Below are positions 11,948-34,652 of a DNA stretch of 64,000 nucleotides, piece after piece. The stretch is from an uncultured Methanomicrobiaceae archaeon (lineage in GTDB: Archaea; Halobacteriota; Methanomicrobia; Methanomicrobiales; Methanoculleaceae): positions 1,504,001 through 1,568,000 of the forward strand of contig CAWGXH010000004.1 of the NCBI GenBank assembly GCA_963826525.1. Direction: 5' to 3'. The position numbers and the translations under genes were made by a program. The notes under the pieces were generated by a model. The model had not been told where the DNA came from and did not search any database. It saw only the letters and a program-made list of their open reading frames with translations. The first letter of the stretch is position 1. Each line of letters begins with the position of its first letter.

Positions 11948-13157
11948 TCATGCCGTCCGGTCGCGCACGGAGAGGGCAAAGAACCCGCAGGCTGCTGCGG
12001 CGATACCAAAACTTGCAAAAAATCCAATGCCGAAGCCGCTGCCGGCAATAAGGACTCCCGTGACGAGCGGACCTGCCGAATGCCCGATATCCATGATGGA
12101 GGAGAGTGCTCCCATCGAGGCTCCCAGGTGTTCTTTCTCTGCGATGTCCGCGACATACGCACTGGTAGCGACCGTAGAGAGCGACATGCCGAGCCCGAGA
12201 ACGGAACTTATGAGCAGGAACTCTGCAAACGCCGATGCTGCCGGGAGAGCGGCTACTGAACACCCGAGAACGAGAAGACCTATGACGATCTGAACCCGTT
12301 TGTCAGCCCGGTCGGCGATCCTGCCGAAGAACGGTTTTGTCACCGCGATGACCAGCACCTGGATGGTAAAGATAATCCCGGTCTGGTACGCATCAACCCC
12401 CCGGGAGAGGAGAAGGAGCGGCAGGAATGTCTCAAACGCCCCGAACGCAAAGTAGGTTGCCATATCCGCGAGGGCCGTTGCCCGCAGTCTCCGGTTCGTA
12501 AAAAACGTGACAAAACTTTCGCGAAACAGAGAGAACGGGAGAATCGTAATCCTGGCCGGATGCTCCTCCCGGTACATGAGGGTCAGGATGACGACCGGCA
12601 CTGCGGCGAGTGCTGCAGCCAGATATACGATCCTGTAGGGGATGAGCCCGGGGTAAAAGACGAAGTACGAGATGATGATCCCGCCGACCAGCGGTGCAAG
12701 CGTCCGCCCGACCAGGGTTGCGGAAGAGGTACTGCCCCAGCATCTCCCCCTTCTTCTCCGAAAATCGCTCGGCGATCATTGCCGAGACTACCGGCCCGAG
12801 GATCGCGGTTGCCGTACCATGGAAAAACCTGACCGGGATCAGCCAGAATGGATCGGAGATGAAGAGGTAGATCAGGGGTGCAGAGAGGAATACCGCCCCT
12901 GAAGCGATGAGCAGCCTTCTCCGTCCCATATGATCGGAGAGGACTCCTATCGGGAACGAGAACAAGATCCCTGCGAGCGGGGAGACCGCGGCAATCAGGC
13001 CGATGACTGCATCACCGGCACCAAGGGCCTGCGAGAACAAGGGCAGCACCGGGTTCTTTGAGATGGTTGTCGAAAAGATGGCGAAAAATCCGAGCAGGAA
13101 GATTGAATACATCGTCCGGCGGTCCAGTGTAGAAGAAGTACGGGGTGCATCCGGCAT
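11948..13157 (-). CDS. MFS transporter; frameshift at ~12730
   Basis: GVLSDHMGRRRLL and GRIADRADKR MFS motif A in both halves; many TM segments. Confidence 0.9.
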
Positions 13158-13479
13158 GCTATGGATCAGGGTTGAGGAGGAAAGAGGGATAAAGGTGCCG
13201 TAGATCTCCTGATCATTCATCTATCACTTTTCCGGCCCGCTTACTCCGCCTTCCTCCTTTTCATGACACCCTCACGCACCAGTACTCCGCTCCTCCAATC
13301 CATCCGCATAGTTGGCTCCAGGTTATACTCCGTGCATATTATGAGGGGGACATTCGCCCTATCTCTGCACGAGGTATCGATCACGCTGGCATGGGAAGAG
13401 ATCTGTTTGTGCTCTCCTCCTGCCGAATGAGGCCGTAATGTCCGGGAGCTTTCCTGTCGGTCTCCTGGCAGGCGAGGTG

Positions 13480-13921: not shown

Positions 13922-14797
13922 ATGGAGCAAGACCAGCCACACAAGAGCCCGACGCTCTTCCGGGACCCGGGCGTCTTTGCCGCCGACTACCTTCCCGAAC
14001 CGGCACCCAGTCGGGCGGCCCCGATGGAGCAGCTCGCCTTTAACCTGCGGTCGGGCATGGTCGGCGCAACGCCGGACAATGTCATCTGCAGGGGCCCGCC
14101 GGGCACCGGGAAGACCGCATGCGTGCGGGCGCTCTTCGCCGATATCGAGGAGATGACCGATCGCTTCATCCCCGTCTACGTCGACTGCCGCGTCGACCGG
14201 ACGGAGCACGCAATCTTCTCGCGGATCTTCTCGAAGCTGACCGGCCGGCCGCCTGCGGAAGAGATGGCCGAGTGGGAGATCCGGGGAGCCGTAGCGGACC
14301 TGCTGCGGGAGCGTAAGGCCGTGCTCGTCGTCTGCCTCGACGAGATCGCCTGCCTCGGCAGCAAAAGCGAGATCAACCACCTGCTGTACGTGCTGCTGCG
14401 CATGTACGAGAGTTATCCCGGCACCAGGATCGGCGTGGTCGCTACCGTCAGCGACCTTTCCTACAATCTCCCCGCCAATCTGGATCCTTCCGTCTTCTCG
14501 GTCTTCCACCCGGTCGAGATCTTCTTCCAGCCGTTCGGCGTCGGCGAGATCCGCGGGATCCTCCGTGACCGGGTGCAGCAGGGGCTCGCTCCCCGCGCAG
14601 TCCCGGTCAAGGTGCTCGAGATGGTCGTGGAGCGGACGAGAGCATGCGGTGACATCCGTGTGGGTCTTGACCTCCTGAAGAGGGCGGCGATGTTCGCAGA
14701 GCAGGACGGTCGGAGGGTGGTAGGCCGGGAGGATGTTTCTATGGCGTATGAGCATTTCAATGATGGATCCACGGTTGCAGGGGATCCGTTTGTTTAG
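13922..14797 (+). CDS. cdc6: Orc1/Cdc6-type AAA+ ATPase paralog lacking the C-terminal wHTH
   Basis: LFRDPGVFAADYLP, Walker A GPPGTGKT, Walker B VCLDEI, GDIRVGLDLL; only 291 aa. Confidence 0.85.
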   Translation: MEQDQPHKSPTLFRDPGVFAADYLPEPAPSRAAPMEQLAFNLRSGMVGATPDNVICRGPPGTGKTACVRALFADIEEMTDRFIPVYVDCRVDRTEHAIFSRIFSKLTGRPPAEEMAEWEIRGAVADLLRERKAVLVVCLDEIACLGSKSEINHLLYVLLRMYESYPGTRIGVVATVSDLSYNLPANLDPSVFSVFHPVEIFFQPFGVGEIRGILRDRVQQGLAPRAVPVKVLEMVVERTRACGDIRVGLDLLKRAAMFAEQDGRRVVGREDVSMAYEHFNDGSTVAGDPFV

Positions 14798-14907: not shown

Positions 14908-16805
14908 TTACGCCGCAATGCCGTGCGTGACAGCTTCTCCGTTCTGCGGTGCGGCTTTTTGAAGCGTGAACCGGAACGCCGCCCCCTGCTCCGGCCGGCC
15001 GGTCACCCGGTCGTCCGCCCAGACCTGCCCGCCGTACCGCTCGGCGAGTATCTGCACGAGGAAGAGCCCGAGCCCTTCGCCGACGCCCCGTTTCTTCTGC
15101 TCGTACCGGTGGAAGATCGCATCCTTGTCCGTATCCGGCACGCCGGGGCCGGTATCCTCGACCGAAACCAGGACGGTTTCGCCCGCATCCTCGACCCGGA
15201 CGGTGATCTCGACGCCGGGACCACCATGCTTCACGGCGTTGCTGATGAGGTTGTTGAAGACCACGGAGAGAAGATCGTCTGCCCAAACCCGGTAGTGCAG
15301 CCCGTCGCAGAGAATGGTGCTGCACGGGAAATCTTTCGTCACCCCCCGGATCACCGCATCGAGATCCATCGGTTTGAGCTCGAACGACTCCCGGTGAATC
15401 CGGCGGATGGTAGAGACAGTCTTCAGGATCTCGATACTCTTCTGGACGCTACGCTGCAGCTTTTTCACATACCCGACTTCCTCCCCCTTCCCCTGCAGGC
15501 TGTCGATGAGCAGGTCGGCGTAGAGGTTCGAGACGTTCTCGGTGTTGCCGATATCGTGGGTGAGGATGTCCAGGTAGAGGTTCGCCTCCCGGTTCGCGGC
15601 CACCAGTTCCCGCTGAAGCGGGTGAGCTCTTCAGTGTGGCGCATAAGCGCTTCTTCCGCCTGCTTGCGTTCGGTGATGTCCCTGATGTTAACGGTGGTAA
15701 TCGGATTTCCACGGACAAAGCCATGCGCGAATGAAGTCTCAAGCCACACCTCCCCACCATCCCGGCGCCTGAAGAAGAACTCCTTTTGCTCCTGCGTCCC
15801 GGGATTCTCCGGCAGCCGGATGCCTGCCAGATCCTGAAGCGGCCTCCCCACCGCCTCGTCGCTGCTGTAGCCGAGGATACTCTCGGCGGCGGAGTTCCAG
15901 ATCAGCACGGTTCCCTCTGCATCAAGGCCGATGATCGCGTCGGGAGATGCCTCGATCAGAAGTCTGTATCCTTCGCCGGAGGGAGGGAAGATCCTGTCCA
16001 GCATCTGGTGAACGTCAGTCTGGCGGTTGCGGGAGAGGTACAGCAGCAGGATCAGGGCTATCAGGAAGTAGAGGGAGGCACCCCACTGCCCCGCTCTGCC
16101 TACCCAGGCCATGATATCCCCGCTGGATACAGTCACCAGGTACGCGAGCTGACCGAGGCTCAGGAATGCCAGCGCCAGACTGTACATATACAGGAACGAC
16201 GAGCGTGCCCGGACGTGCTGCACGAATATCAGCAGGGCGGAGGCCGCAAACAGGATCGCAGCGAATCCGATGACCACCTGCCGGATCGGGGTGCCGCCCT
16301 CGCCGGCGATGAAAAAGGCGGGGAGCCGCTGCGCCGTACTTGCGAGGACTACCAGCAGTACTGCCGCTATCCCGCCGCCATAGCCCGCTGCGAGAGCAAT
16401 TACCCGCTGCCGCATGTCAGCCCTCATCAGGCCGATAGATAAGAGGGCGGTCAGGGCGCCGATGAAGTGCAGGGAACCGGCGAGGAGGGCGCCGATATTC
16501 TGTATCTGCACGCCGGCATTCAGGCTGATCGGGGTTCCGAACAGGTTCGCCATGAGGATGGCCAGCCCCAGCACGAGGATGCCGGACCCCATCCAGACGA
16601 GCTGCAACCGGCCGGTCTTCACCACGGCCCATGCAACGAGCACGGCGAGAACGATGAACCCGATGTTCAGGAAGATGTTGAACCCTGCCTGAAAGGGAGC
16701 AATAAAATCGAGAGGGACGTTTGCAAAGACCTGCACGACGAAAACCAGTGCCAGCAGAAGAACGGGCGCGGCAGCAAGCAGGCGCCAGGTATGCTGCACG
16801 TTCAT
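14908..16805 (-). CDS. Membrane-bound PAS sensor histidine kinase; frameshift at ~15610
   Basis: Multi-TM N-terminus, one PAS, H-box LTHDIGN, NLISNAVKH, DTGPG and GEGLGL. Confidence 0.85.
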
Positions 16806-17100
16806 GGTCCGCCACTGCTGTCTGCTGCTGTCATGTGATTTGCCTGCTATGAATACTCTTTCTGTGAATGCATTATCAGCATTGGTTGCTCAGCCCCGGC
16901 GTTGCTTAACGGATATTAACTACGATTAATCTGATCAAGTATAACTTTTCCCATTCGGTTATTACGCACCGAGCGGTGGCAAAAGGAGTTTTGCACGGCT
17001 TACGAGAGGTTTTATGGCGTAATCTCACGTGTGAGTGCCCCCTCTGCCACAACAGCCGGCTACCGCTGTATTCTCTGTCTTCCTTCGCCCTCCGGAGCGT

Positions 17101-17396
17101 CCCACCTCCGCCCGCTCCCTCCGGTCGCTCCGCCCTCCTCCCAGGGGAGGAGGGCAGTCCGGTGCGATACCCCGTGTCCCGGGCCAGCCTCCACTGCCAG
17201 GGCGGGTAACGGTAGCGAGTGCCCGACCTCCAGCCGCGAGCATGCCCGGCGGAGCCGGTGATGCGAGCGGCGGGCCGGAGCAGCCGTCACGCTGCGAGGC
17301 CGCGCCGAGCGAGTGAGGGCGCCCGCGGTCCCGGACACCGCGAAGAACCAGGGCGACGTTCCGAAGCGAGCACCGCGAGCGAGGAATCTCGCCCGT
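17101..17396 (-). repeat. Structured GC-rich repeat family A, left inverted copy
   Basis: Reverse complement aligns with 19298-19569; hairpin GCCCTCCTCC-CAGG-GGAGGAGGGC at 17132-17155. Confidence 0.9.
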
Positions 17397-17415
17397 CGGC
17401 GGGGCCCGGCAAATG

Positions 17416-17571
17416 TTACTCTTCCTCGACCGGATCGAGCAGGATGATCTTCACTCTTTTACCGACCCACGAGACCGGCACCATAACATGGCCGCTGTTC
17501 CCGGTTTTGGTAACGGTCTTCTCCCGCACTTCGTATCCGCTGATAGTGAGTTCCACTTTATCCATACTCAT
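17416..17571 (-). CDS. DUF2080 family transposon-associated small protein (AbrB-like), 51 aa
   Basis: Manual translation MSMDKVELTISGYEVREKTVTKTGNSGHVMVPVSWVGKRVKIILLDPVEEE; below the ORF-track cutoff. Confidence 0.8.
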   Translation of the reverse strand: MSMDKVELTISGYEVREKTVTKTGNSGHVMVPVSWVGKRVKIILLDPVEEE

Positions 17572-17607
17572 TATGTAATCTTTGTATCATATAAAATCTA
17601 ACTTAAA

Positions 17608-17633
17608 TTATACATTGTATATACAATGTATAA
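17608..17633. promoter_or_regulatory. Perfect 26-bp palindrome in AT-rich divergent promoter region
   Basis: TTATACATTGTATATACAATGTATAA between DUF2080 (-) and the 17703 operon (+). Confidence 0.65.
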
Positions 17634-17702
17634 AAGTTTAAATACTCAGCCGTCCTATACTATAATAGTGAGCGGAGAGGCGCTCACTGGAGGAATAGAC
17701 AG

Positions 17703-17966
17703 ATGACATTCAAGAAAATCGGAAGGCTGGCCCTGCACGACGGCCGGCTCCGGGTCGAGATCGACACGGTCGGATCGTTCACCTTCGACGATCACTGCCT
17801 GGTCGGCGAGGACGGCCGGCGGCACGGCTACGCGATGCCGAGCACGACGGGAAAAGCGATGAACCTGCACCTGACGGACGGAGCGCTCTGCACCGTGATC
17901 AAGTCGCAACTCCTGCAGGTCGTCAGCGGGAATATCGGAAAAGCAGCAGTGTTCGAGGTGGCGTAA
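17703..17966 (+). CDS. Hypothetical protein, 87 aa
   Basis: GGAGG RBS upstream; first gene of the operon leading to ardC. Confidence 0.65.
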   Translation: MTFKKIGRLALHDGRLRVEIDTVGSFTFDDHCLVGEDGRRHGYAMPSTTGKAMNLHLTDGALCTVIKSQLLQVVSGNIGKAAVFEVA

Positions 17967-18282
17967 ATGTCCTGGACAGACGCCGACAGCCACCCCGAAC
18001 CCCTGCACAGAGAAGATCGGCGGGCAGCCCCTTAACCCTTCCGGGCGCCCCCTCTCGTTCACCGACGCGATCCCGTACCGCGACCTCCGCCGGATGGCCG
18101 ACCTCGATGAGCGGGCGATGGAGATCGGCGCCGAGAGAAACCCGCTCTCGCAGCGGGTCGCCGCCCACCTCTTCAAGCAGGCCGAGGAGATCCTGCAGCA
18201 GGTACCGCGACCTGGTCGCGGAGCACGGCCTCGAGGCATGCGCACAGTGGGCGGCCGAGGCCGACGCACGGAGGGGACTTCT

Positions 18283-18433
18283 GATGCCGGCGACCTGCGA
18301 CGAGTGCGGCGCCGAGGTGCCGGACGACTGCTGCCGGATGAGCCGCGAGCGGGAAGAGTTCTGGGGTGCGCCGTGTTCCTACACGGTGATCACCGGCTAC
18401 ACCTGCCCGGAGTGCGGGCATGAGGAGGTATGA
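18283..18433 (+). CDS. Small zinc-ribbon protein (CxxC...CxxC)
   Basis: MPATCDECGAEV...YTCPECGHEEV immediately upstream of ardC; start approximate. Confidence 0.6.
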
Positions 18434-18436
18434 CGG

Positions 18437-19290
18437 ATGGTCTCCGTCTACGAGGTGGTCCGGGACCGGATCATCTCCTCCCTTTCAGCCGGCACGGTGC
18501 CCTGGCGGCAGACCTGGCAGAGCATGTCCCCGATGAACCTCGCCACCGGCCGGCCCTACCGGGGGATCAACCGGATCCTGCTCGCGGGGCATCCCTGGTG
18601 GGGCACCTACAACCAGATCAAGCAGCCTCGGCGGCTACGTCCGGAAGGGCGAGAAGGCATCCGGGATCGTGGTCTTCTGGTCGTTCGACGAGACCCGGCG
18701 GACGGTGAGCGAGAACGGCGACGAGGTCGCGGTGATCATGCAGCGGGAGCGGCCGCTGGTGCGCTACTACAAGGTCTTCAATCTCTCGCAGTGCGACGGG
18801 ATCGCCGTGGAGGACGTCGGCGAGGTGCAGCCGATCGCCTCCTGCGAGGACGTGATCGCCCGGAACGCTCCCCGGGTGATCCCGGGCGAGCCGGCCTACC
18901 TCCCGAAGAGCGACCGGATCGCGATGCCGGCGCCGGACCGGTTCACCTCGGCGGAGGCCTACTACGCGGCCTTCTTCCACGAGCTCGCCCACTGGACCGG
19001 GCACGCCTCCCGGCTCGACCGGCCGGGGATCACGGAGCCGATCCGGTTCGGCAGCGAGGAGTACAGCCGCGAGGAGCTGACGGCGGAGATGGGCGCCGCG
19101 TTCCTCTGCGCGATGACCGGCACCGATCTGCCGGTGCTCGAGAACCAGGCGGCCTACATCGCCGGGTGGCTGAAGCATATCCGCGACGGTTCGGCGGTCG
19201 ACGTGATCCGGGCCGCGGCGGATGCCCAGCGAGCGGCGGACTTCCTCACCGGGAACGGTGGGGAGGAGGCCTCTTCTTTTTCGAGGGCGG
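18437..19290 (+). CDS. ardC: ArdC family ssDNA-binding antirestriction protein (DUF1738 + zincin-like domain); frameshift at ~18625, native stop unclear
   Basis: GTVPWRQTW, NLATGRPYRGIN, VFNLSQCDG, FHELAHWTGH.SRLDR, YSREELTAEMGAAFL and AAYIAGWL motifs. Confidence 0.9.
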
Positions 19291-19297
19291 GAGCGGC

Positions 19298-19569
19298 CGG
19301 GCGAGATTCTTTGCTCCCGGTGGTCGCTGCAGAACATCGCCCTGGTTCTTCCCGGTGTACGGGATCGCCGGCGCCCTCACTCGCTCGGCGCGGCCTCGCT
19401 TCGTGACGGCTGCTTCCGCCCGCCGCTCGCATCGCCGGCTCCGCCGGGCATGCTCGCGGCTGTTACCTGTCCTGTCGATAGAGGCTGCCGGGGATACGGG
19501 CTATCGCACCGGACTGCCCTCCTCCCGGGGAGGAGGGCGGAGCGACCGGAGGGAGCGGGCGGAGGTGGG
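19298..19569 (+). repeat. Structured GC-rich repeat family A, right inverted copy
   Basis: Inverted homolog of 17101-17396; hairpin GCCCTCCTCC-CGG-GGAGGAGGGC at 19516-19538. Confidence 0.9.
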
Positions 19570-19634
19570 GCAAACGCACCATCCAAAAATGGTGCAGCGG
19601 CCGTAAGCAGGAAGGTATTCCATTCCGGACCGTC

Positions 19635-21931
19635 TTACGCGACTTTCTGCAGCGTGAACCGGAAGGCCGCCCCTTCCTCCGGCCGGCCCGGGACCCGGTC
19701 ATCGACCCAGGTGCGCCCGCCATAGCGCTTGACCAGCGTCCGGACGATGTAGAGTCCAAGCCCCTCCCCTTTTCCTCTGGCCACGCCACGCTCGAACCGG
19801 GTGAAGAGCTTCTCTTTCATCTCGTCCGGCACACCGGGACCGGTGTCCTCGACCGAGACCCGCACTTCGCCGTTCTGCTCCTCGAAACCGATTACGATCT
19901 CCACGTCAGGTCCGCTGAATTTGACGGCGTTGCCGATGAGGTTCGTGAAGATCACCGGCAGGAGACCGTCTGCGAGCACGTCGACCCTTCGGCCGTCGAA
20001 CTGGATCGATGCACCGGGGAAGTTCTCAATTTCCTCCTTGATGATCGCATCGAGATTCATCGGTATCAGGCGATCGGATTCCTGCTGCAGCCGCCGGATA
20101 GTGGCAACGTTTCGGAGGATCTCGCTGCTTCGCTGGATGGCGTCCCGCAGTTTCCGGGCGTAAAGCCACTGGTCGCCGGCGAGCAGTCGACCAGGAGGTC
20201 GGCGTACATGCTCGGAGACGTTGTTCGCGTTCCGGACATCGTGGGTTATGATGTCCAGGTACATGTTCGTCTCATCGCGTGCTGCCTTGACTTCATGGTT
20301 GAGCCGGATGAGGTCGTCGGTGCGGCGCACAAGCACTTCTTCAGCCCGCTTACGCTTGGTGATATCTTGAATCGTGCCCATAACGCCAGGCTCGCTTCCG
20401 AACACTATCGGTGCACCACCCATTGATCCCCAGACTGCGGTGCCATCTTTTTTCCGGAGTTTTGCCTGAAAATCTCGGACGACTCCATCCTTTTTCATGA
20501 TATTTAGCCAGGCGTTTCTATCTTCGGCATTCCACCAAATGTCAGATGCCTTCGTACCCACCATCTCACCTGGCCCATAACCTACGATACGCTCAAAGGC
20601 TGGATTGGTGTACCGAAGCACGCCATCCATCGAACTTATGCCTGCTCCGATTGGAGTAACTTCGCTCAGTGCTTTAAAGCGCTGTTCACTCTCTTGTAAA
20701 GCTTCTTCGGCCCGCTTGCGCTCGGTGATATCGATATAAGCTCCTACCGCACCATATGGCCTCCCGTTCTCGTCCAGTAACGGCACGGCATTACCGAGCA
20801 GCCGATGCATCGTCCCGTCATCAAAGACCAGATCGAGCTCGGCCAGCTCCGCCGTCCGGCCGGTGGCGGCGGCCTTCTGCACGGGCAGTTCCGCCGGCGG
20901 GACCTCGATGCCGTCCTGCATCACCCGGAAATGCGTCGGCCGCTCTCCTTCGGGACCCGACTTTGAGAGGTTGCTTCCCTGCGGCAGGCGGAGAAGATCG
21001 TACGTCCTGCGGCTGCCGAGCATGGTCAGGCATTCGGGATCGACCGCGATGAAGACCGCTGCGGGTACCGCTTCCATGATCGCCTGCAGCTCCGCTGCCC
21101 GCCTCCGTTCTCGGGCCTCGCTCTCCCGCAACTCCGCTTCTGCACGCTTGCGCTCGGTGATGTTGCGTGCATTCACGACGAAACCCCGAACGGCAGGCTC
21201 TTCCAGGAGATTGACACCGGTCACATCAAAGTACTGCCAGCCTCCTGAGCTGTCCCGGATCCGGGCTTCATAGTAACCTTCTCTTTCGGATGGGCGGCAA
21301 GAGTGCGCAGGCCGTCCATCGCCAGCGGCAGATCGTCGGGATGAATCAGTTTAAAGCCGCTTCTCCCGATAAGATCTTCGGCCGCATACCCCCCGACCTG
21401 TTTCGCCGAAGGAGTTTTATACCGAATATGTCCTTCTGCATCGAGAACGACGACGATATCCGAGGCATTCTCGGTGAGCAGCCTGAATCGCTCCTCACTC
21501 TTCCGTAATGCCTCTTCCACCCGTTTGCGTTCGGTGATCTCCTCGACAACGATATTGATCGCGACGACCCGCCCCCGGTCGTCCTTGAGCGGCCACCAGT
21601 TTTCCTTCCAGCAGCGGGCTACGCCGGGCTGTGCCGGCGTCTCTCCCCGAATCTCGAGATCGAGAACAGGTTCACCCGTTTCAACCACCCTTCGGACGAG
21701 GTCTTCAGCCACGTCCGCAAGATCCGGGACAAGTTCACGGACTCTCTTCCCGATATGTTCCTCGACGGAAAGCCCGTTCAGTTCGGCAAGTTGCCGGTTG
21801 ACACGGAGGTACCGGGTATCCGTGTCGAGCAGGCAGAGCCCGATCGGTGCCGACGCATAGATGACATCGAGCTCCAAGTGATCTTTCGCATAGTCCTCGT
21901 TTCCCCAAGAAGCTCTTTCAAAGCGTTTCAA
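19635..21931 (-). CDS. Multi-PAS sensor histidine kinase; frameshift(s) at ~21265 and a locally shifted patch at ~20200
   Basis: Four PAS/PAC units, ITHDVRNANN H-box, NLIGNAVKF, DTGPG and GEGLGL. Confidence 0.85.
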
Positions 21932-22258
21932 TTGTTCATTCTCACGTCGAAGGGTATCAATCTCCGCCTGAAGTCTTTGACTTCGGCGGAGAGATCCCGT
22001 GCCGCTTCGTCCCGCCTGGTGGGATCGGTTTTTTCCTGTTGGGTTCCTGGGGGTGCTGGCATCAGAATCGGGACTCCTATTTAAAGCAGTATCAGTGAAT
22101 TTCCCATGCAGGGTAATAACAATAGCACTCTACGTGCATGCGTAGGGACACCCCGAGTAAGGTTATAGCAACTGCTTGTCAGCAAACAAAGGTCTGTTTT
22201 TTAAAATTATCGTAGTCAGGACGGCAAATGCAAGAATCTGGATGTTAACCAGCGAACG

Positions 22259-22419
22259 ACCGGGCGAGACTCCTCACTCGCGCTGCTCGCTTCGGAACAT
22301 CGCCCTGGTTTTTCCCCGGTGTCCGGTACCGCGGACGCCCTCACTCGCTCGGCGAGGCCTCGCAGCGTGACGGCTGCTCCTGCCCGCCGCTCGCATCACC
22401 GGCTCCGGCCCGGGCATGC
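22259..22419 (+). repeat. Repeat family A, third (partial) copy
   Basis: CGGGCGAGA...GAACATCGCCCTGGTT...CCCTCACTCGCTCGGCG...GTGACGGCTGCT...CCGGGCATGC matches 19298-19455. Confidence 0.85.
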
Positions 22420-22488
22420 ATCAAGGCTGCTGTTCGGTAAAGCAATCCTTAAATACCCGTAATCCCGGCCGAATCCGCCGAAAAAACC

Positions 22489-22735
22489 ACCCTCACAGAA
22501 GCCCACAGACGGCCGATCTCGAGGCGAGGCAGGGTATCCATCCTCCGAAAATTACTGCCCCTCATATGGCCATTATACCTCGATGAATCTGCCGTATTTC
22601 TGGAATCAGGCCGATATGCTTTGGTTTCTATATCGGCTGGAATCCGCCTCTCTGGAATCAGCGTTAAAATCTGAAAAGGGCGGCAATTTACCCTTCTTTC
22701 AGGACGGGGTGAGGGGCGTTCCCTCTCACGCCAGA
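22489..22735. repeat. Non-coding repeat family B, copy 2
   Basis: Similar to 11712-11915 and 42400-42570; ends in CTTTCAGGACGG...CCCTCTCA. Confidence 0.7.
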
Positions 22736-23947
22736 TCGTTGCGCCGGAGGAACTCCCGGATCGCCCGGGACTCGACCCATCCCTGGTCGAGCTGCCTGAC
22801 GATATCGTTGATTCGCCTCACCTGCGTCTGGATACTCGCGGCGGTCTCCTCGTCGGCCATGAGATCCGCCCTGGCCATGATCACCTGCAGCGGGTGGCGG
22901 ACGTGGTCGCCGAGGATCGCGAACTGCTCCATGTTCTGCTCTATCTGGGCATACGCCTGCCGCCGGATCGCTTCGTGATGTTTCCGATCGGTGATGTCGT
23001 ACATGATGCCGTGGCTCGATACGGCCCTGGCCGGCGGCATCGCAGGCGAACCTGCGGACCGAGTGCATCCAGCGCACTTCGCCGTTCGGCAGGCAGACGC
23101 GGTAGTCCATCACGAAATCCTTCCGGTCACGGATACTCCGCTCGAGCTCCGCGAGGACGTGTTCGCGGTCTTCGGGATGCAGCCGGTCAACCAGAGCGGC
23201 GTGGCCTGGTTCGACGCTCCCGGGTGCATATCCCAGCAGCTCGAACTGCCGGGGGTTCCACTCCGACCTGTCGTTCTCGAGATCCCAGAACGATACCCCG
23301 GCCTGTATGGCGTCCAGTGCCAGTGCCAGCTTGTCACGGCTTCTGCGCAGTTCACGTTCAGCCATTTTGCGCTCGGTAATATCTGAGAAGACGGCGACAC
23401 CGTACCGGGGAGCGCCTCCCGAGCAGGTGACGGGTGCGGTGCTGACCTCCATGTACCTGGTGGTGCCGTCTGCCCGGAGGAATGCGATCTCTTCATCCGT
23501 GACCCGCTCCCCGGTAGCGATCGACCGGGAGAGAGGCCACTCGTCAGGCCGGTACGGCCGTCCGTCAGGGTGAAACCCGATATCTCCGAATCGCTCCTGC
23601 GCTTCGTCGGCGGGGAGGTAATGACGCCGCAGGATGCGGTTTACCTGTTTATTGCCGAGGACAAACTCCCCGGACGGCGCTTCGACGATAAGCACACCGG
23701 CCGGCATCTGGTCGATCACCGCCCGGAGCATGCCACGCTCGGTCTCGACCTCATCCACGAGACGCTCGCACTCCCGCTCGGCTTTGTGGGCACGCTCTTT
23801 AAGTGCATCTGCACATTCTTCGAGTGCGTTGATCCGGCCTACAAGAGTATCGATGAGGCGGCGATCGGCAGGATCAGCCCGTTCCCGGAGTTTCTGCAGG
23901 GCTGCATGTGCCTGTTCATCTGCGTGCGTATCGGCGGACCCGTTCAT
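22726..23947 (-). CDS. PAS-PAS protein with C-terminal HisKA-like helical domain and no HATPase; frameshift at ~23050
   Basis: Two PAS/PAC units, then QIEQNMEQFAILGDHVRHPLQVI...GWVESRAIREFL-stop. Confidence 0.75.
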
Positions 23948-24072
23948 GCATATACCTCGTGTATCCCTTGTTCTTCACCGTCGGCCCTCATGGCCTTTCT
24001 GCTTCGGGTACAGTGCCCTTCGCTCAGGCATGATCCGCCTTCCGAAGCGTGAATTTGAACGCCGCTCCTTCA

Positions 24073-26405
24073 TCAGGAGAGCCCGGCACCCGGTCGTCGA
24101 CCCAGACCCTCCCGCCGTAGCGTTCGACCAGTGTTCGGACGATGAAAAGCCCGAGCCCCTCTCCGCTTCCCTCGGGCCATGCCCCGTTCGAACCGGTGGA
24201 AGAGTTTCGCCTTCACCTCGTCCGGCACGCCCGGGCCGGTGTCTTCGACCGAGACCAGCACCTCGCCGTCCCGCTCCTCGACCCGGACGGTGATTTCGAC
24301 GTCGGGACCGCCGAACTTCACGGCGTTGCCGATGAGGTTCGTGAAGACGGTCGGGAGGAGGCCGTCTGCCAGCACCTCGACCGGAGGATCGATCGTACCG
24401 GATCGATGCATCGGGGAAGGCTTCGATCTCACTTCGGATGACGGCATCGAGGTTCACCGGCACCAGGATGACCGGATTCCTGCTGTGCCCGCCGGATGGT
24501 GGCGACGTTCCGGAGGATCTCACTGCTCCGGTCGATGCTGTCGTGCAGTTTCTCTGCATAGGTCTTCAGGTCTCCTTCCGCCAGGTCGGCCAGGAGATCG
24601 GCGTACATGCTCGAGACGTTGTTCGCGTTCCGGACATCGTGCGTCATGATGTCGACGTACATGTTCGCCTCGTCGCGTGCCGCCTCAACCTCCTGACTCT
24701 TCCTGATAAGGTCGTCGGTGCGGCGCCGGAGCGCTTCTTCCGCCTCTTTGCGCCTGGAAATGTCACGCATCACCAGCATTGAGGCAGGTTTGCCTTTGTA
24801 CCTGATCTGCACTTGGGAGTTCTCTACATCTGCTCTCTGCCCGTCCAGGCGGATGATCTCGACCTCCACGGGCGAAACGCTCTCCTTTGCCAGGCTCTCT
24901 CGAGACCGTGCATCGATGAGTGCGTGGTACTCGGGGTGGACGAGGTCGAAGATGGTTTTGCCGGCGAAGTCCTCCGGCGACGATGCGCGGAAGAGACGAA
25001 CCGCTGCCGGGTTTGCGTAGATGTAGTCCTCGTCCTGCTGGAGCAGAATTGCCTCCGGGGAGAGTTCGACCAGAATGCGGTAGCGCTCTTCGCTCTCTTT
25101 TAAGGCTATCTTCCGCCCTCTTCCGGTCCGTATCATCGTACATATAGGCACGTGTTCCAACGAGTTCTCCGGTATCGTCAAAGATGCCTGTCAGGTTCGC
25201 AACGATATTGACCAGCCGGCCGTCCCGGCGGCGCAGGGTCATTGTGTGATGGTAGAGTGTTCTCTCCTGCCGGAGCCGGCTTAGGAGATCGGCTCTCTCC
25301 TGGGGGTCCGGGTAGAGCAACGCGATGTTGCTCTCGAGAGCCTCGTTCAGGGATGTAAACCCGAAGATTGCGAGAAATGCAGGGTTACAGGCCTGAATCC
25401 GCCCGTCGACAGAGACCTGGCTGTCGCCGGTGAGGTCGTCCCAGAAGAACCGGGCGTACTTCTCCTCGCTCTCCCGCAGGTCCTCTTCCGCCCGCTTGCG
25501 TTCGGTGATATCCTGGGTTATCCCGAAACCTCCGAGCAGCCCGCCGGCATCGTCGAACTCCAGGTAGGCCTTCTCCCGCACCCATTTTACACGCCCGTCC
25601 ACCAGAATGCGGTGCTCGATGTCGTAGGGCTCGCCAGAGAGTCCCGCCTTCCATCGGGTGTCCACGTACTCCCGGTCATCGGGGTGGACTAAACTCAGGA
25701 ACGTCTCGTAGGTTAGCGGTGTCCCTCGTGGCACTCCGAATATGCGGTGATTCTCGTCCGACCATGTCAGGACGTTCCGGTCGATATCCAGCCGCCAGCT
25801 TCCAATCTGGCCGACGGTCTGTGCCCGGTCAAGATCTTTCCGGCTCTCCCGCAGTGCCTCTTCCGCCTGCTTCCGCTTGGTGATATCGGTGGCGACGACC
25901 CGGAGCCGGGGCGTATCGCCGCCTGCGACGCTCTTCCCCTCGAGCAGCACCAAGGCGGGTTCGCCCTCCGCCCGCTTCAGCCGGACGTCGCAGGCCTCTT
26001 TCATATCCGAGGTCATCGCCCGGGCAAGGAACTCGTTGAACTGTTTGAGACTCTCCCGTTCGAGGAAGAACTCGAATCGCGCTCCGATCAGCCGCCCGCG
26101 TACCCTGCCGAGCAGCGACGCCCCGGCGAAGTTCGTCTCCAGGATCTCGCCGTTCAGATCCAGCGTGAAATACCCGATCGGCGCGAACTCGTAGAGGTCG
26201 CGGTACTTCTCTTCGGAGGCCTGCAGATCGCGCTGCAGATCCTGCAGCGCCTCGTTCTGGAGCTCGAGCTCGACCTGGTGCACCTCGAGCTCGTGATAGA
26301 GTCTCCGCACGTCCTGCTCGGGGAGGTCTCCGGCGTGTCCTTTCTTCCGCACCTCGTCCTCGGCGCGTCGCCGGAGGTCTGGGTCTGACGATCTCTCCGG
26401 CATGG
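24073..26405 (-). CDS. Multi-PAS sensor histidine kinase (CheB/CheR-fusion partner type); several frameshifts
   Basis: YHELEVHQVELELQNEAL N-terminus, four PAS, MTHDVRNANN H-box, NAVKF/DTGPG; split over four ORFs. Confidence 0.8.
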
Positions 26406-26413
26406 TGATCAGT

Positions 26414-26826
26414 TCACTCGGGTGCGGTTTCCTCATGTGTTCCACCGGCCTCTGCTTCCGGACGGCCGGTGACGTCCTTGATGGCGAGCGGGATCAGGTT
26501 GGGCCGGTTGCGAAGGGGATCCGCCGGCATATGCGTGAAGAACTGTTCGAGCGCCTGCAGCCCTCCCGACGATGCCCCGATCCCGACGATGCCCCGATCC
26601 CGACGATGCCCCGATCCCGACGATGCCCCGATCCCGACGATGCCCCGATCCCGACGATGCCCCGATCCCGACGATGCCCCGATCCCGACGATGCCCCGAT
26701 CCCGACGATGCCCCGATCCCGACGATGCCCCGATCCCGACGATGCCCCGATCCCGACGATGCCGATGACTTCGCTCGATCGACCTCCGGATTCGTGTGTG
26801 TTCCTGGTCTCTGTATTCTGCGTCAT
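26414..26826 (-). pseudogene. Internally deleted CheB/CheR-PAS fusion remnant
   Basis: CheB start IVGIGASSGGLQALEQFFTHMPAD joined directly to C-terminal LIPLAIKDVT. Confidence 0.7.
26565..26763. repeat. Perfect 17-bp tandem repeat, 11 units + 12 bp
   Basis: (CCCGACGATGCCCCGAT)n with no spacers. Confidence 0.97.
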
Positions 26827-27133
26827 GGGTCGTTTCCCGAAAAATTTTGCCGAAGGTTTCCATCTCCCCTTGCCGTGCACCACCGCCGGTGGAAGGGAGG
26901 TGCCGGGTTGGTATATTAATCTAGAGTGGGTGGGCGATGCTTCTTTAACTCTTCGTTCGCACCACACCTCTCCTCCGAGATGCGTTCTCTGGGAGAAAAA
27001 CTCTGCAGGACGGCCTGCGTAGGGGAACAGAGCGTTTCGAGGGACAGGTTTGCGTTTTCCCCCGACGCTTTCGCTGCACACGGAAAATGCGCCCCTCGTG
27101 GGGGCGGCAAAAGAATGTTCGCAGAATAGCCTT

Positions 27134-27296
27134 CTTTCAGGACGAAAGAGAGGGGTGTTCCCTCCCTCACCCGAGCGCCGGCATGCCGTCCGCCCAGGTC
27201 TCGACCGTGGTGCGGATAGCGTCGTCCTGGTAGGACGTGACATACGTAGATCTCGCCGGACGGGTCGTGGCACGTGAGCCGGCACGAGTAGGTTGC
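27134..27296 (-). pseudogene. 3' fragment plus terminator of a second copy of the 42567-43070 gene
   Basis: Near-identical to 42537-42720 (TCACCCGAGCGCCGGCATGCCGTCCGCCCAGGTCTCGACCGTGGTGCGGATAGCG); encodes CHDPSGEIY. Confidence 0.85.
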
Positions 27297-27398
27297 CCAC
27301 CGTGTCACTTGGTGCCCGTGCAGAGAGCGGGCCTGTGTTGGAGAAGGGATCTGCCGGTGCTCGAAAACTATGCAGCCTACCAATGCCCATAGGCATCT

Positions 27399-30300
27399 TC
27401 AACGTCGTCTTGGATCACGCAGCCTCTTCTCCGGGAATTGCATCACGAACACCATACCATCCTCCGAATCGATCGCCAGCGTTCCTTTCAGCTGAGATGT
27501 GACCAGCCGTTTGACCAGTTTCAGGCCGAGTGAACTCGCTGAATCACTGTCATAGTTGTGAGGGAGCCCTCTGCCGTCATCCCCGACAATGAGCGTGAGC
27601 ATGCCGTTATTGTCCCGTGACAGAGCGATACGGATAGTCCCCTCCGATCGGCCGGTGAATGCATACTTGATTGCATTCGTCATCAGTTCGTTGATAATAA
27701 GGCTGCAGGGAATAGCCGTATCGAGGTCCAGGGAGAGATCCTCAATCTCTGTGTCAAGCCGAATATGCGTTGTAGTGCTCTCGGAGTAAAGAAGATTGGT
27801 AGCAAGGTTTTGGATGTGTTCACGGGCATTGATGCGGGCGAGATTGCTGGACTGATAGAGGCTCTCGTGCACCATTGCCATGGCCATAATCCGGTTTTCG
27901 CATTCGCGGAGGTAGTGTATGATTCTCGGATCGCCGATGCACAGGGATTGGAGGTTGAGCAGCCCGGATATGATCTGGAGGTTATTTTTGACGCGATGAT
28001 GGATCTCCATCAGGAGAACCGACTTCTCATCGATTGACGCCTGCAGACTGCGTTTCATAGTTCTTTCGTTCGGTGATGTCGCGTGCCGCCGCAAAGACGC
28101 CGGTGACCTTCCCGTCTTCACTGCGGTAGACGGTTGCATTATAGAGCACCGGGGTCGTATGCCCGTCCCGGTGCCAGATTTCCAGTGGGTAGTCCCGCAC
28201 CCGCCCCTCCGCAAAGACTTTCTGGTATCCAGCCCTCGCCTCTCCGGGATTGGTGAAGTAGTCGGAAAAGTCGGTCCCGATCAGTTCGTTGCGTGTGTAT
28301 CCGGTCACCTGCTCAGTGGCGGTATTCACGTCGGTGATTCTTCCGTCGAGACCGATGGTAACGAGCGGGTCAAGATTGGCCTCGATGAGGCTGCGGTTAT
28401 AGGTATTTGCTGCTTCAAGGGCCTCTTTTGCCCGTTTTTGCTCGGTGATGTCGTTAAAGACCCCTACCGCACCATAGGAGTTGCCATTCTCATCCAACAA
28501 TGGCACGGCGTTGCCGAGCAGGTATCGTATCGTCCCGTCGTCGAAGACCAGATCGAATTCGGACTGATGTAATGGCTGACCGGTGGCGGCGGCTTTTTGC
28601 ACGGGCAATTCTTCCGGCGGCACCTCGGTGCCGTCTTTCAGCACATAGTAATGCGCTGGCCGTTCATCGTCGGGTGCTGATTTTGAGAGATTGCTTCCCG
28701 GCGGCAGGCGAAACAGATCGTAGGTCCAGCGGCTGCCGAATATGAAGCGGCATTCAGGATCGAGCGTGATAAAGACCGTAGCCGGAACCGCCTCCATGAC
28801 CGCCTGCAGTTCCGCCGCCCGCCGCCGTTCCCGCTCCTCGCTCTCCCGGAGCGCCTCTTCCGCCCGCTTGCGTTCGGTGATATCCGTGAACATAGCAAAT
28901 GAGCCGATGACGTTACCGTTTTCATCCCTCTTTGGTGTTGCCGACACCAAAACCCATCGGGCTGTTCCGTTTCTGTGTTTTAAACGGCATTCATACTTGC
29001 CACGATGGCCGTCCTGCCGCTGTGCCTGGAGGGCGGTATGGAGTTCCTTGATATCCTCCTCAAAGAGAAACTCCGGCACTGGCCTACCGACCATCTCATC
29101 AACGCCGTAGCCCAGCATCGCTGCCATCGTGGGATTGACTCGCAGGGTGACGTGCCGGTCATCCTGCTCCCATATTCCCTCACTGGCGGTCTCGACAATC
29201 GTACCGGTAGCTCTCCTCGCTCTTCCGCAGTGCCTCTTCCATTTCTCTCTTTTCTGTTATGTCCAGGAATGTTCCGATTGCTGCCGGTTCGCCGTAGTAC
29301 GTCATTGTAGTGCCGTAAACCTGCAGAACGATCTTCCTGCCCGATGCTGTGATGCCGCGCACCTCGCACTTGAGCGAATCCTCGTTCTTCTTCCCCTCTC
29401 GACGATACTGCTCGTAGAGCGCTGCCAGATCGTCGGGATGCACCCAGGATTCAAAGGATCTTCCGAGCAAGGCGTCCTTATTGGCACCAAGTATCTTCGC
29501 ACCGCGAGGATTGATGTAGTGTATCACCCCGTTCTGGATGAGATAGGTGCCGACAAGTGACTTTTCGACCGGCTTTTTGAACAGCTCATTCATTGTGGTG
29601 CGAATAATGGCAGAGCCGATGATCGTGGCCGCTGCACGCAGGGCATCTATCTCGGTCTGCGTCCATTTCCGCTCGATGGTGCAGTCATCGAACCCTATAA
29701 AACCCCACCAGCGCGAGTCAACGAAAATAGGGAGCACAATGAGTGAAAGGGTGCCCTGCGGTTCGAGATGGGCTCGTTCGCATTTTGGGAAATCCCTGAT
29801 CCGGCCGCAGATCGATTTGCCCGATGAGAGAGTCTCATACCAACGGAACAGATCTCCCTGATAGGGGACGTTCTGCAGTTTGTTTTTCCCTCCTAGGGTG
29901 GAAACTCCCGGTTTTGTCCATTCCCAACGGAAACTGGTGCTGGGGAATCCTGTGCGCGGATCGGTGCGGTTCTCAAAGATGTATGCCCTGCTGGCACCGG
30001 CAGCCTCACCGAGGTTTTGCAGGACTTCGTCAATGCGGTTGTTCCAGGTATCGTCGCTCAAAAAACGTTCTGCTGCGAAGCTCACCGCACGCAATATCGC
30101 ATCGCGCCTGTGCAACGCTTCCTGTGCATGTGTTCGCTCGGTGAGATCCCGAACAATCCCAAAGATTACGTCCTCATCGTCCCAGCGCCCGGTGGAAACA
30201 CGCGTCTCGACCGGCAGTGCCGTACCGTCTCTCTTCATCACCGGGAGCGTACAGAAGTGGCATGTTCCCTGGAGCATATCTTCAAAAATCTGTTTTGCCT

Positions 30301-34160: not shown

Positions 34161-34652
34161 CTACCGTGTCTCCCGTACGGCTCCGGTGTGGACATTGCGG
34201 TGCGGGTTCTCCGGTGTGAGAGAGGCATGCCTGTCGGGCGGCATCGTCCGCAGATCTGTACTCCCGTTATGGCGGGTAAGTTGAATTTTTAAATGGGTAT
34301 ATCGCGCGGTCAGGATCTGCTTAACGTCGCTTAACATCAGATGTTCCCGATACTCCATCGGGAAGATTGTTGCTTGGGAGCGGATTCTTTTGAGGGCTTC
34401 GCGGTGCTGGCGCCTCGCCGCCCGGGTGTCCCTGGAGACATCTGCGACCTCTGATACCACTGCTGCGATGTCGTTATAGCAGACGGTATAGACCGGCTTT
34501 CTATCGACACCGATATTTCCAAAGTCTCTGTGCTGCCGTGATGCTACGATCCCGTAGAAATAGACGCCGGAACGGTTCTTCTTGTTTGGTTTGCTCGCTT
34601 CATACGTCGTACTACCGGATTGCGCCATACCTGTCATCATAGCTGTTGACAC
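34161..34652 (-). pseudogene. GvpF/GvpL-like protein, N-terminal half
   Basis: YFYGIV...GNIGVD.KPVYTVCYNDIAAVVS...H.EALKRI...TIFPM pattern; truncated. Confidence 0.55.

Follow-up and report, generated by a model that had tools for sequence, protein, structure and literature searches.

This analysis concerns a small gene cassette built around the anti-restriction gene ardC in a 64,000-nucleotide stretch of DNA, hereafter the window, from an uncultured Methanomicrobiaceae archaeon (contig CAWGXH010000004.1, positions 1,504,001 to 1,568,000 of the forward strand). At window positions 17101-19569 lies the ArdC cassette of this Methanoculleus-like methanogen, bracketed by inverted repeats of 280-300 bases. 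Our preferred reading, to which we give about an even chance, is that the cassette is the establishment (anti-restriction) operon of integrated Methanoculleus-like islands, and that the flanking repeats are module-boundary sequences used in recombination. We read the repeats as boundaries because they mark where homology between islands begins and ends and because they travel with ardC; that they act as recombination junctions is what we infer from this behavior. In the arrangement we propose, a small DNA-binding regulator (DUF2080-type here, HTH_17-type elsewhere) would be transcribed divergently from a hyp87-orf104-Zn-ribbon-ArdC operon and would act through the AT-rich stretch between them, in which lie a TATA box and a 26-bp palindrome. 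The operon would be bounded by inverted, island-specific non-coding repeats, with a module designated Y inside and a module designated X outside. These repeats would supply homology, or a recognition site, for cassette swaps between islands and for rearrangement within genomes, and the cassette would be moved by recombination rather than move itself.

The features are listed below in window coordinates, with protein lengths in amino acids (aa). The genome under study is called G000. It was compared chiefly with two congeners (G001 and G002), three genomes of a sister genus (G122, G138, and G157) and two genomes from other families (G031 and G032).

17101-17184, + strand: X, outer module of the left arm; tip at 17101, then the 22-base core CGCCCGCTCCCTCCGGTCGCTC (17109-17130), then a hairpin with a 10-bp stem (17132-17155)
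17185-17230, + strand: linker of type A, between X and Y of the left arm
17231-17400, + strand: Y, inner module of the left arm, subtype a; ends ~15 nt past the DUF2080 stop codon
17416-17571, - strand: DUF2080-family protein, 51 aa, probable regulator of the divergent promoters (PF09853, 6e-07; NF033496, 6.6e-18)
17572-17702, no strand: divergent control region, AT-rich (31% GC), with a perfect 26-bp palindrome (17608-17633) and TTTAAATA (17637-17644)
17703-17966, + strand: hyp87, 87 aa, function unassigned, predicted small beta barrel (open reading frame and structure model)
17967-18285, + strand: orf104, 104 aa where intact in G001, broken here by 1-base insertions near 17974, 18201, and 18281
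18284-18433, + strand: Zn-ribbon protein, 49 aa, with two CxxC pairs
18437-19406, + strand: ardC, 321 aa where intact in G001, here with one extra base near 18626; its last ~37 codons and stop lie inside Y
19293-19462, - strand: Y, inner module of the right arm, subtype b (inverted-repeat pair)
19463-19569, - strand: linker (type A with a 21-nt deletion) and X of the right arm; tip at 19569
22261-22429, - strand: third copy of Y, solo, with a module designated Z (~22430-22600) in the place of X
13922-14797, + strand: short Orc1/Cdc6 paralogue, 291 aa, without a winged-helix domain

An initial annotation of this stretch had reported a pair of GC-rich inverted repeats of ~280-300 bp around these genes, and both the repeats and the gene content were confirmed by three inverted pairs and by family matches. 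The pairs are collinear and join 17101-17146 to 19524-19569 (46 nt, 98%), 17145-17184 to 19487-19526 (40 nt, 93%), and 17231-17400 to 19293-19462 (170 nt, 89%); compared from end to end, the arms (17101-17400 and 19293-19569) are 83% alike. They have a GC content of 72-75%, versus 58% for the window, and contain no A/T run of four or more. Each arm is a composite of the outer X (~85 nt), a variable linker and the inner Y (~165 nt), X and Y being two separately dispersed families. The outer edge of Y is sharp, and the first 42 nt from the tip of X do not differ among the six ends present in G000, G001, and G002. There are two linker types, A and B, unrelated to each other, whose left/right combinations are A/A in G000, B/A in G001 and B/B in G002. 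The earlier statement that each arm starts just after the last gene applies to the left arm, which stops short of the regulator gene, but not to the right arm, where the ardC frame enters Y for ~110 nt and reaches a TGA stop that is invariant in a 19-copy alignment of Y. We considered Y as a coding sequence and rejected this candidate, the ardC-frame tail being kept in seven ardC-adjacent copies, broken in G014 and G145_a, and of low complexity when read. Nor did the tips contain any G-quadruplex with loops of ≤12 nt.

Two other repeats were seen beside Y. The Z module stands outside some Y copies instead of X (window 22430-22600; G000:C3:226150-226352; L040, 18350-18542) and bears a TATTTAAG-like box ~25 nt before the outer Y edge. 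A family designated W, of ~280-360 nt, occurs just outside the regulator-side Y in Methanoculleus islands (L048, 7613-8049; L044, 13345-13702 and 1893-2153; L054, 5022-5302).

The cassette is intact in G001, where the DUF2080 gene on the minus strand is followed in the opposite direction by hyp87, orf104 and the genes for the Zn-ribbon protein (49 aa) and ArdC (321 aa), with stops and starts that overlap or abut. The TATA box TTTAAATA follows the palindrome and lies ~60 nt before the hyp87 start. In G002 and G122, an HTH_17 gene and a different AT-rich region replace the DUF2080 gene and the palindrome, with place and orientation unchanged. This exchange of regulators at a fixed position, together with the central control region, corresponds to a self-regulated operon whose repressor can be swapped. 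The DUF2080 protein is the probable regulator of the divergent promoters, with the 26-bp palindrome as its predicted operator. None of the seven open reading frames scanned (the cassette and its neighbors) matched a transposase or recombinase family, in agreement with the initial annotation.

ArdC has an N-terminal domain matching PF08401 (8.2e-15, window 18437-18700) and a C-terminal zincin-like MPTase-PolyVal domain (PF18818, 4.5e-31) whose HExxH motif reads HELAH in translation. It also matches the PHROG category "anti-restriction protein" (2.6e-64) and plasmid proteins, to which it is 41-44% identical over residues 1-250 of 321. ArdC anti-restriction proteins are known from conjugative plasmids, for example those of the IncW type, and have the same two-domain architecture, that is, a single-stranded DNA (ssDNA)-binding N-domain and an HExxH zincin-like metallopeptidase. 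Judged by its sequence, the cassette protein is an ordinary ArdC with a predicted anti-restriction function. It differs from plasmid ArdC in its setting, an archaeal chromosomal island in which no conjugation genes were found, in its Y-encoded tail of ~37 residues, and in being frameshifted in this copy. The tail looks incidental, since the plasmid homologs stop at residue 250 and the ArdC of G031, which has no Y, ends soon after the conserved core.

In G000 the two ArdC domains are in different frames because of the extra base near 18626, one of four single extra bases (the others near 17974, 18201, and 18281) that break ardC and orf104 relative to G001 and G002. MFS and histidine-kinase genes in the vicinity are also split, while the long housekeeping genes of the window are intact. 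The four insertions and the intact housekeeping genes lead us to lean toward real decay, with sequencing error as the alternative, and the G000 copy is probably a decaying relic. The families of hyp87 and orf104 comprise only 14 and 32 proteins, respectively, among 5.8 billion, and the named sources are Methanoculleus species. Their structure models had pLDDT values of 93 (hyp87) and 85.5 (orf104), and Foldseek returned no match for either at E ≤0.001; the best VIA Z, 6.2 for hyp87, is below the level for naming a fold. A search of a protein atlas with orf104 gave no usable match.

The repeat is strongly linked to ardC, a co-occurrence that the initial annotation had proposed to check. In a survey of 201 genomes of the order, in which at most four candidates per genome were scored and copy numbers are therefore lower bounds, Y was present in 17 genomes and the rarer X in 9, with copies often clustered within ~10 kb. 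Solo copies of X are more diverged (76-93%). Seven copies of Y were found in G000, four of which abut ardC or an ardC remnant, one a DUF2080 gene, and two neither; conversely, three of the four G000 sites with ArdC-like coding sequence have Y directly 3'. Among 14 loci fetched from relatives, all selected through matches to the cassette, X or Y, nine have Y abutting ardC or a fragment of it. This restricted distribution and the tie of Y to ardC indicate that the repeat is an ardC-linked sequence rather than a genome-wide miniature inverted-repeat transposable element (MITE). Homologous cassettes with no match to the arms do exist, in two other families: G031 and G032 each have a DUF2080 gene and ardC (hyp87 was also matched in G031). 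Of the two conditions that the initial annotation had named as refuting its idea, the genome-wide MITE does not hold, whereas homologous cassettes without matching arms do occur, so that the outcome is mixed.

Clusters of cassette debris, with ardC 3' fragments and Y, were observed in G000:C3 at 222954-229367 and 288837-289327. In the same debris, one copy of X is fused to the middle of ardC with nothing between, and part of the orf104 block is present at 96% identity.

The cassette is a mosaic. The hyp87 module has two alleles, each of which crosses genera: one is 91-98% identical among G000, G001, G138, and G157, the other 93% identical between G002 and G122, and the two are 64-71% identical to each other. 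The orf104 and Zn-ribbon module follows genus, with identities of 87-95% inside a genus and 53-55% from one genus to the other. In the ardC core, G122 shares 90-91% identity with the congener copies of G000, G001, and G002, but 78-84% with those of G138 and G157 in its own genus. For comparison, a conserved housekeeping stretch of the window is 87% identical to its counterpart in G001, 84% in G002 and 80% in G122 and G157. Some parts of the cassette are therefore more alike across genera than the genomes are, which indicates exchange more recent than the divergence of the genera. Between two bi-allelic modules, in the 5' part of orf104, lies the block that is most conserved in the whole cassette (18001-18050), with 97% identity across six cassettes from two genera. 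This block is probably a crossover point or recombination linker, or has a second function at the nucleic-acid level.

The arms have exchanged as well, since the linker pattern (A/A, B/A, B/B) implies a past exchange involving them, although inversion is not thereby proven. The initial annotation had suggested that the segment between the arms might be invertible, and long inverted repeats can indeed recombine. We nevertheless consider an invertible DNA switch to be the least probable of the readings discussed here and very close to negligible: no recombinase is encoded, and both promoters are inside the segment, so that inversion would switch nothing. The linker swap was rejected as proof of inversion, because the pattern does not require it and is explicable by conversion or by exchange between elements.

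The whole unit is present in G001 at 94% identity (query 12-2480 of 2491) and in G002 at 87%, there with the regulator region replaced. In G000, G001, and G002 homology ends at the same base, the X tips, and the flanks are unrelated. In G122, G138, and G157, the cassette lies between inverted copies of Y, with X on one side at most, and the homology among these genomes and contig L054 breaks off where the Y on the ardC side has its outer edge. We looked for a clean Y-to-Y indel of the cassette between G122 and L054 and rejected this candidate, as the difference beside Y is not clean.

The X junctions bring in the main rival to our reading, namely a true non-autonomous transposon that runs from X to X. 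Its terminal inverted repeats would be long and composite, and their tip and hairpin would be recognized by an enzyme encoded elsewhere that cuts and pastes the unit. We consider this unlikely, while giving it real weight. It would account for the sharp junctions, which fall on one and the same base in three genomes although their flanks are unrelated, for the six identical 42-nt tips, and for the X hairpin, in which the stem is conserved and the loop variable, with a compensatory change in one solo copy. It is also consistent with the greater divergence of solo X copies, with the presence of the 22-mer core at the head of dispersed intergenic repeats in bacteria (see below), and with the NCBIfam name of the regulator, "DUF2080 family transposase-associated protein." High scorers for that family in G012 and G027 adjoin DDE-type transposases, but no transposase adjoins the DUF2080 gene in G000.

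Several observations speak against transposition. There is no target-site duplication at the three insertions (G000, G001, and G002), each genome has a single full unit plus fragments, and pairs of X bracket no other cargo. In the sister genus, at least one end of each cassette is without X. No Y1 transposase was found in G000, G001 or G002 (a search for other transposase families was not made), and a Y1/IS200-type enzyme was rejected as the mobilizer on that account. A search of 55 genomes for the empty counterpart of the G001 insertion found none, and none was found for that of G000; the flanks are paralogue-rich or unique. Finally, the diversity of flanks is in part that of a rearranged, shared ancestral site. 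In G002:C3 a 17-nt stub of Y, with a linker and X, lies beside the kinase 3' flank that also borders the right end of the unit in G000, and this is a remnant from a deletion or rearrangement; metagenome contig L172 has the same junction. Because G002:C3 and L172 share the G000 right flank, not all of the flank diversity represents independent insertion. The initial annotation's alternative of a non-autonomous mobile unit is thus sustained by the exact tips in three genomes and the mosaicism across genera, but not by any target duplication, empty site or partner enzyme.

The 22-base core of X extends the question beyond the archaea. It was found as an exact match in 37 metagenome contigs (L156-L192), only six of which are X, Y or ardC contexts. 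In the other 31 it is a lone intergenic 22-mer between ordinary or housekeeping genes of diverse bacteria, with several contigs often sharing one metagenome. The sequence surrounding the bacterial copies differs, unrelated hairpin-rich sequence follows, and NAAC or CTCT often precedes; one copy of X in G000 (C15) starts directly at the 22-mer. There were no exact matches to the 22-mer in viral contigs, plasmid records gave four weak DNA matches for X (E 0.2-0.7) and none for the bacterial repeat unit, and no Rfam family reached its gathering score in 20 of the metagenome contigs. For the bacterial copies we considered a stem that the 22-mer might close with an inverted partner downstream of it and rejected this candidate, as its score of 13.5 was no better than the 12 obtained in upstream controls. 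The most far-reaching interpretation of these copies is that the X-to-X unit would be a new archaeal cargo element, in which a self-regulated anti-defense operon between long composite inverted repeats would be moved without target duplication by an enzyme that reads a tip whose 22-nt core is common to bacterial repeats. We consider this quite unlikely; were it true, it would define a cross-domain family of mobile DNA ends.

The surroundings of the cassette in relatives point toward integrated islands. In G002 the order is a 41-nt 3' fragment of tRNA-Leu, a 389-aa tyrosine integrase, a small open reading frame, a short Orc1 gene and then X-Y-cassette-Y-X. In G122 and G018, the modules adjoin a tRNA-Leu(UAA) gene, which in both genomes has the same aminotransferase as its neighbor. 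Genes or fragments of tRNA-Leu were present in 6 of the 14 fetched loci and in two of six metagenome contigs bearing X or Y; in G145, gene and fragment point in opposite directions. Neighbors in the islands of relatives include type I and type II restriction enzymes, NERD-UvrD helicases, HNH and GIY-YIG proteins, and HFX_2341-like proteins, a gene content characteristic of variable and defense islands. The distance from X to the gene for the short Orc1 orthologue is 48 nt in G002 and 33 nt in G122, as opposed to 2.3 kb in G000, where a kinase gene stands between. These sequence contexts support an origin of the cassette in integrative elements, though no complete element was delimited.

Short Orc1/Cdc6 paralogues of 288-294 aa, none with a winged helix in any copy seen, lie beside X in several genomes. 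Further short copies were noted in L041 (11655-12647), L044 (14029-14895), and L184 (2801-3685), and G000 has many further Orc1 paralogues. The possibility that X splits an orc1 gene was rejected, there being no winged-helix fragment beyond the cassette.

The initial annotation had favored another role for the arms, as structured signals of an ssDNA "leading region," in which archaeal counterparts of the Frpo/ssi or CUP elements would fold in transferred ssDNA and serve as promoters or priming sites. The ArdC N-domain that binds ssDNA, the location of the cassette in mobile islands and the local hairpins in X and Y are all compatible with such a role, and sequence alone is insufficient to dismiss priming signals. 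As in those systems, long repeats adjoin anti-restriction genes on a mobile element. CUP and Frpo/ssi elements lie upstream and carry or form promoters; those of the Frpo/ssi type are situated near oriT, on the strand entering first, and make their promoter boxes by means of a long hairpin. The arms here differ in being downstream and inverted, with no promoter-like sequence. The genes read into them, and the promoters and the predicted operator are central; being 3' of the outermost genes, the arms cannot drive those genes, and with no A/T run of four or more they hold no TATA-like element. Their folding is also unexceptional, with ssDNA fold energies of -85 and -73.5 kcal/mol for the two arms compared with means of -80.6 and -70.0 for dinucleotide shuffles (z -1.1 and -0.9), and the description of whole arms as structured was dropped. 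In addition, VirB4, the PF03432 relaxase and TraG/VirD4 were not found in G000, a genome that is 87.6% complete, and the cassettes of the other families, which show no arm match, would work without arms. We therefore regard the ssDNA reading as very unlikely, and the parallel, attractive as it was, to conjugative plasmids of bacteria and their leading regions was removed as unsupported.

In the inner module there are some local signs of structure. Y points inward, antisense to the 3' ends of ardC and of the regulator gene, and could be a structured RNA or single-strand element, for example, an antisense or 3'-end element acting on both genes. The 19 copies of Y yield a three-hairpin consensus with 94.1% of cells paired and 8 pairs altered on both sides (4.1 in shuffles; 8 reached by 2/500), above all slid controls, but these measures are inflated, since the structure was derived from the same related sequences on which it was tested and most compensatory cells come from the single split into two subtypes. 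Subtypes a and b have two compensatory differences in the 3' hairpin, and on this strand G-T cells outnumber A-C cells (32 vs. 17). The conservation of the fold is accordingly a hint at most. A TATA-like box ~25 nt before the start of Y is found in only 3 of 19 upstream regions, all of them Z-type copies, and we rejected a promoter of its own for Y on this basis. No Rfam family was detected at E ≤1 across window positions 16500-23000. Altogether, we think it doubtful that Y acts as an RNA or single-strand element.

Returning to our preferred reading of the cassette as an island operon with recombining boundary repeats, several points weigh against it. No recombination event was observed directly, and the missing empty site for the G001 insertion applies here as well. 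Public sequencing runs yielded no reads of this organism: none contained more than 0.20 of the words sampled, no RNA run was among those listed, and the four runs compared consisted of contigs of relatives. The identical 42-nt tips and the hairpin with its conserved stem suggest recognition by a protein, whereas passive homology would need neither. The signs of a conserved fold in Y, modest as they are, make a function of its own possible. The Y arms of one genome are ~90% identical, while the same arm is 92-95% identical between genomes; arms within a genome being no more alike than this, ongoing arm-arm exchange is not seen. The G000 window has no integrase and no tRNA-Leu gene or fragment near the cassette, and the difference between G122 and L054 beside Y is not a clean indel from Y to Y.

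Among known systems, mobile insertion cassettes and cargo-carrying MITE-like elements have passenger genes between inverted repeats of insertion sequence (IS) type and are moved in trans. The unit resembles them in its passenger genes without a transposase, its sharp inverted-repeat tips and its different flanks in each genome. It differs in that its arms are 280-300-nt composites rather than repeats of 20-50 nt, there is one full copy per genome, and neither a target duplication nor a matching IS or transposase was found. With the module linkers of phages it shares short conserved stretches that flank alternative, reassorting alleles, but the outer linkers of this unit are long and in inverted orientation, and they occur elsewhere as solo copies too. 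Archaeal elements that integrate at tRNA genes with a tyrosine integrase and Orc1/Cdc6 are comparable in that relatives of the cassette adjoin an integrase, a short Orc1 gene and tRNA-Leu; they are unlike it in that no complete element was delimited, the integrase and any att remnant are missing in G000, and the Orc1 has no winged helix. By analogy, the unit appears most like a mobile insertion cassette or an exchangeable module of the phage type, and the arms look like the module-boundary repeats of an integrated mobile island rather than signals read in ssDNA.

Among the papers listed in the literature searches, we found no description of a methanogen ArdC cassette of this type; nothing was found on Methanoculleus and miniature inverted-repeat elements, and the DUF2080 literature held nothing on such a cassette. 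Archaeal anti-restriction genes are little studied, and this cassette offers a defined, apparently self-regulated ArdC operon exchanged between methanogen genera, with three small partner proteins without known family. If the boundary repeats are sites of recombination or transposition, they would provide a handle on how methanogen islands shuffle genes of defense and counter-defense and might become a tool to move DNA in methanogens.

The cassette of G000 occupies an intergenic gap in an array of paralogous PAS histidine-kinase genes and is convergent with the 3' end of a kinase gene. The array extends over window positions 14908-16805, 19635-21931, and 22688-29127, and several of its genes are apparently frameshifted; G001 and G002 have dozens of such kinase paralogues. 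L172 and G031 have the same arrangement of cassette and kinase as the window. Just upstream of the short Orc1 gene, an MFS transporter gene (window 11948-13220) is split into two overlapping frames and is an apparent pseudogene. Further downstream, a GvpL/GvpF gas-vesicle match at 34161-34652 lies within a stretch of lower GC content (~29.5-39.5 kb) that is occupied by small open reading frames without a family match.

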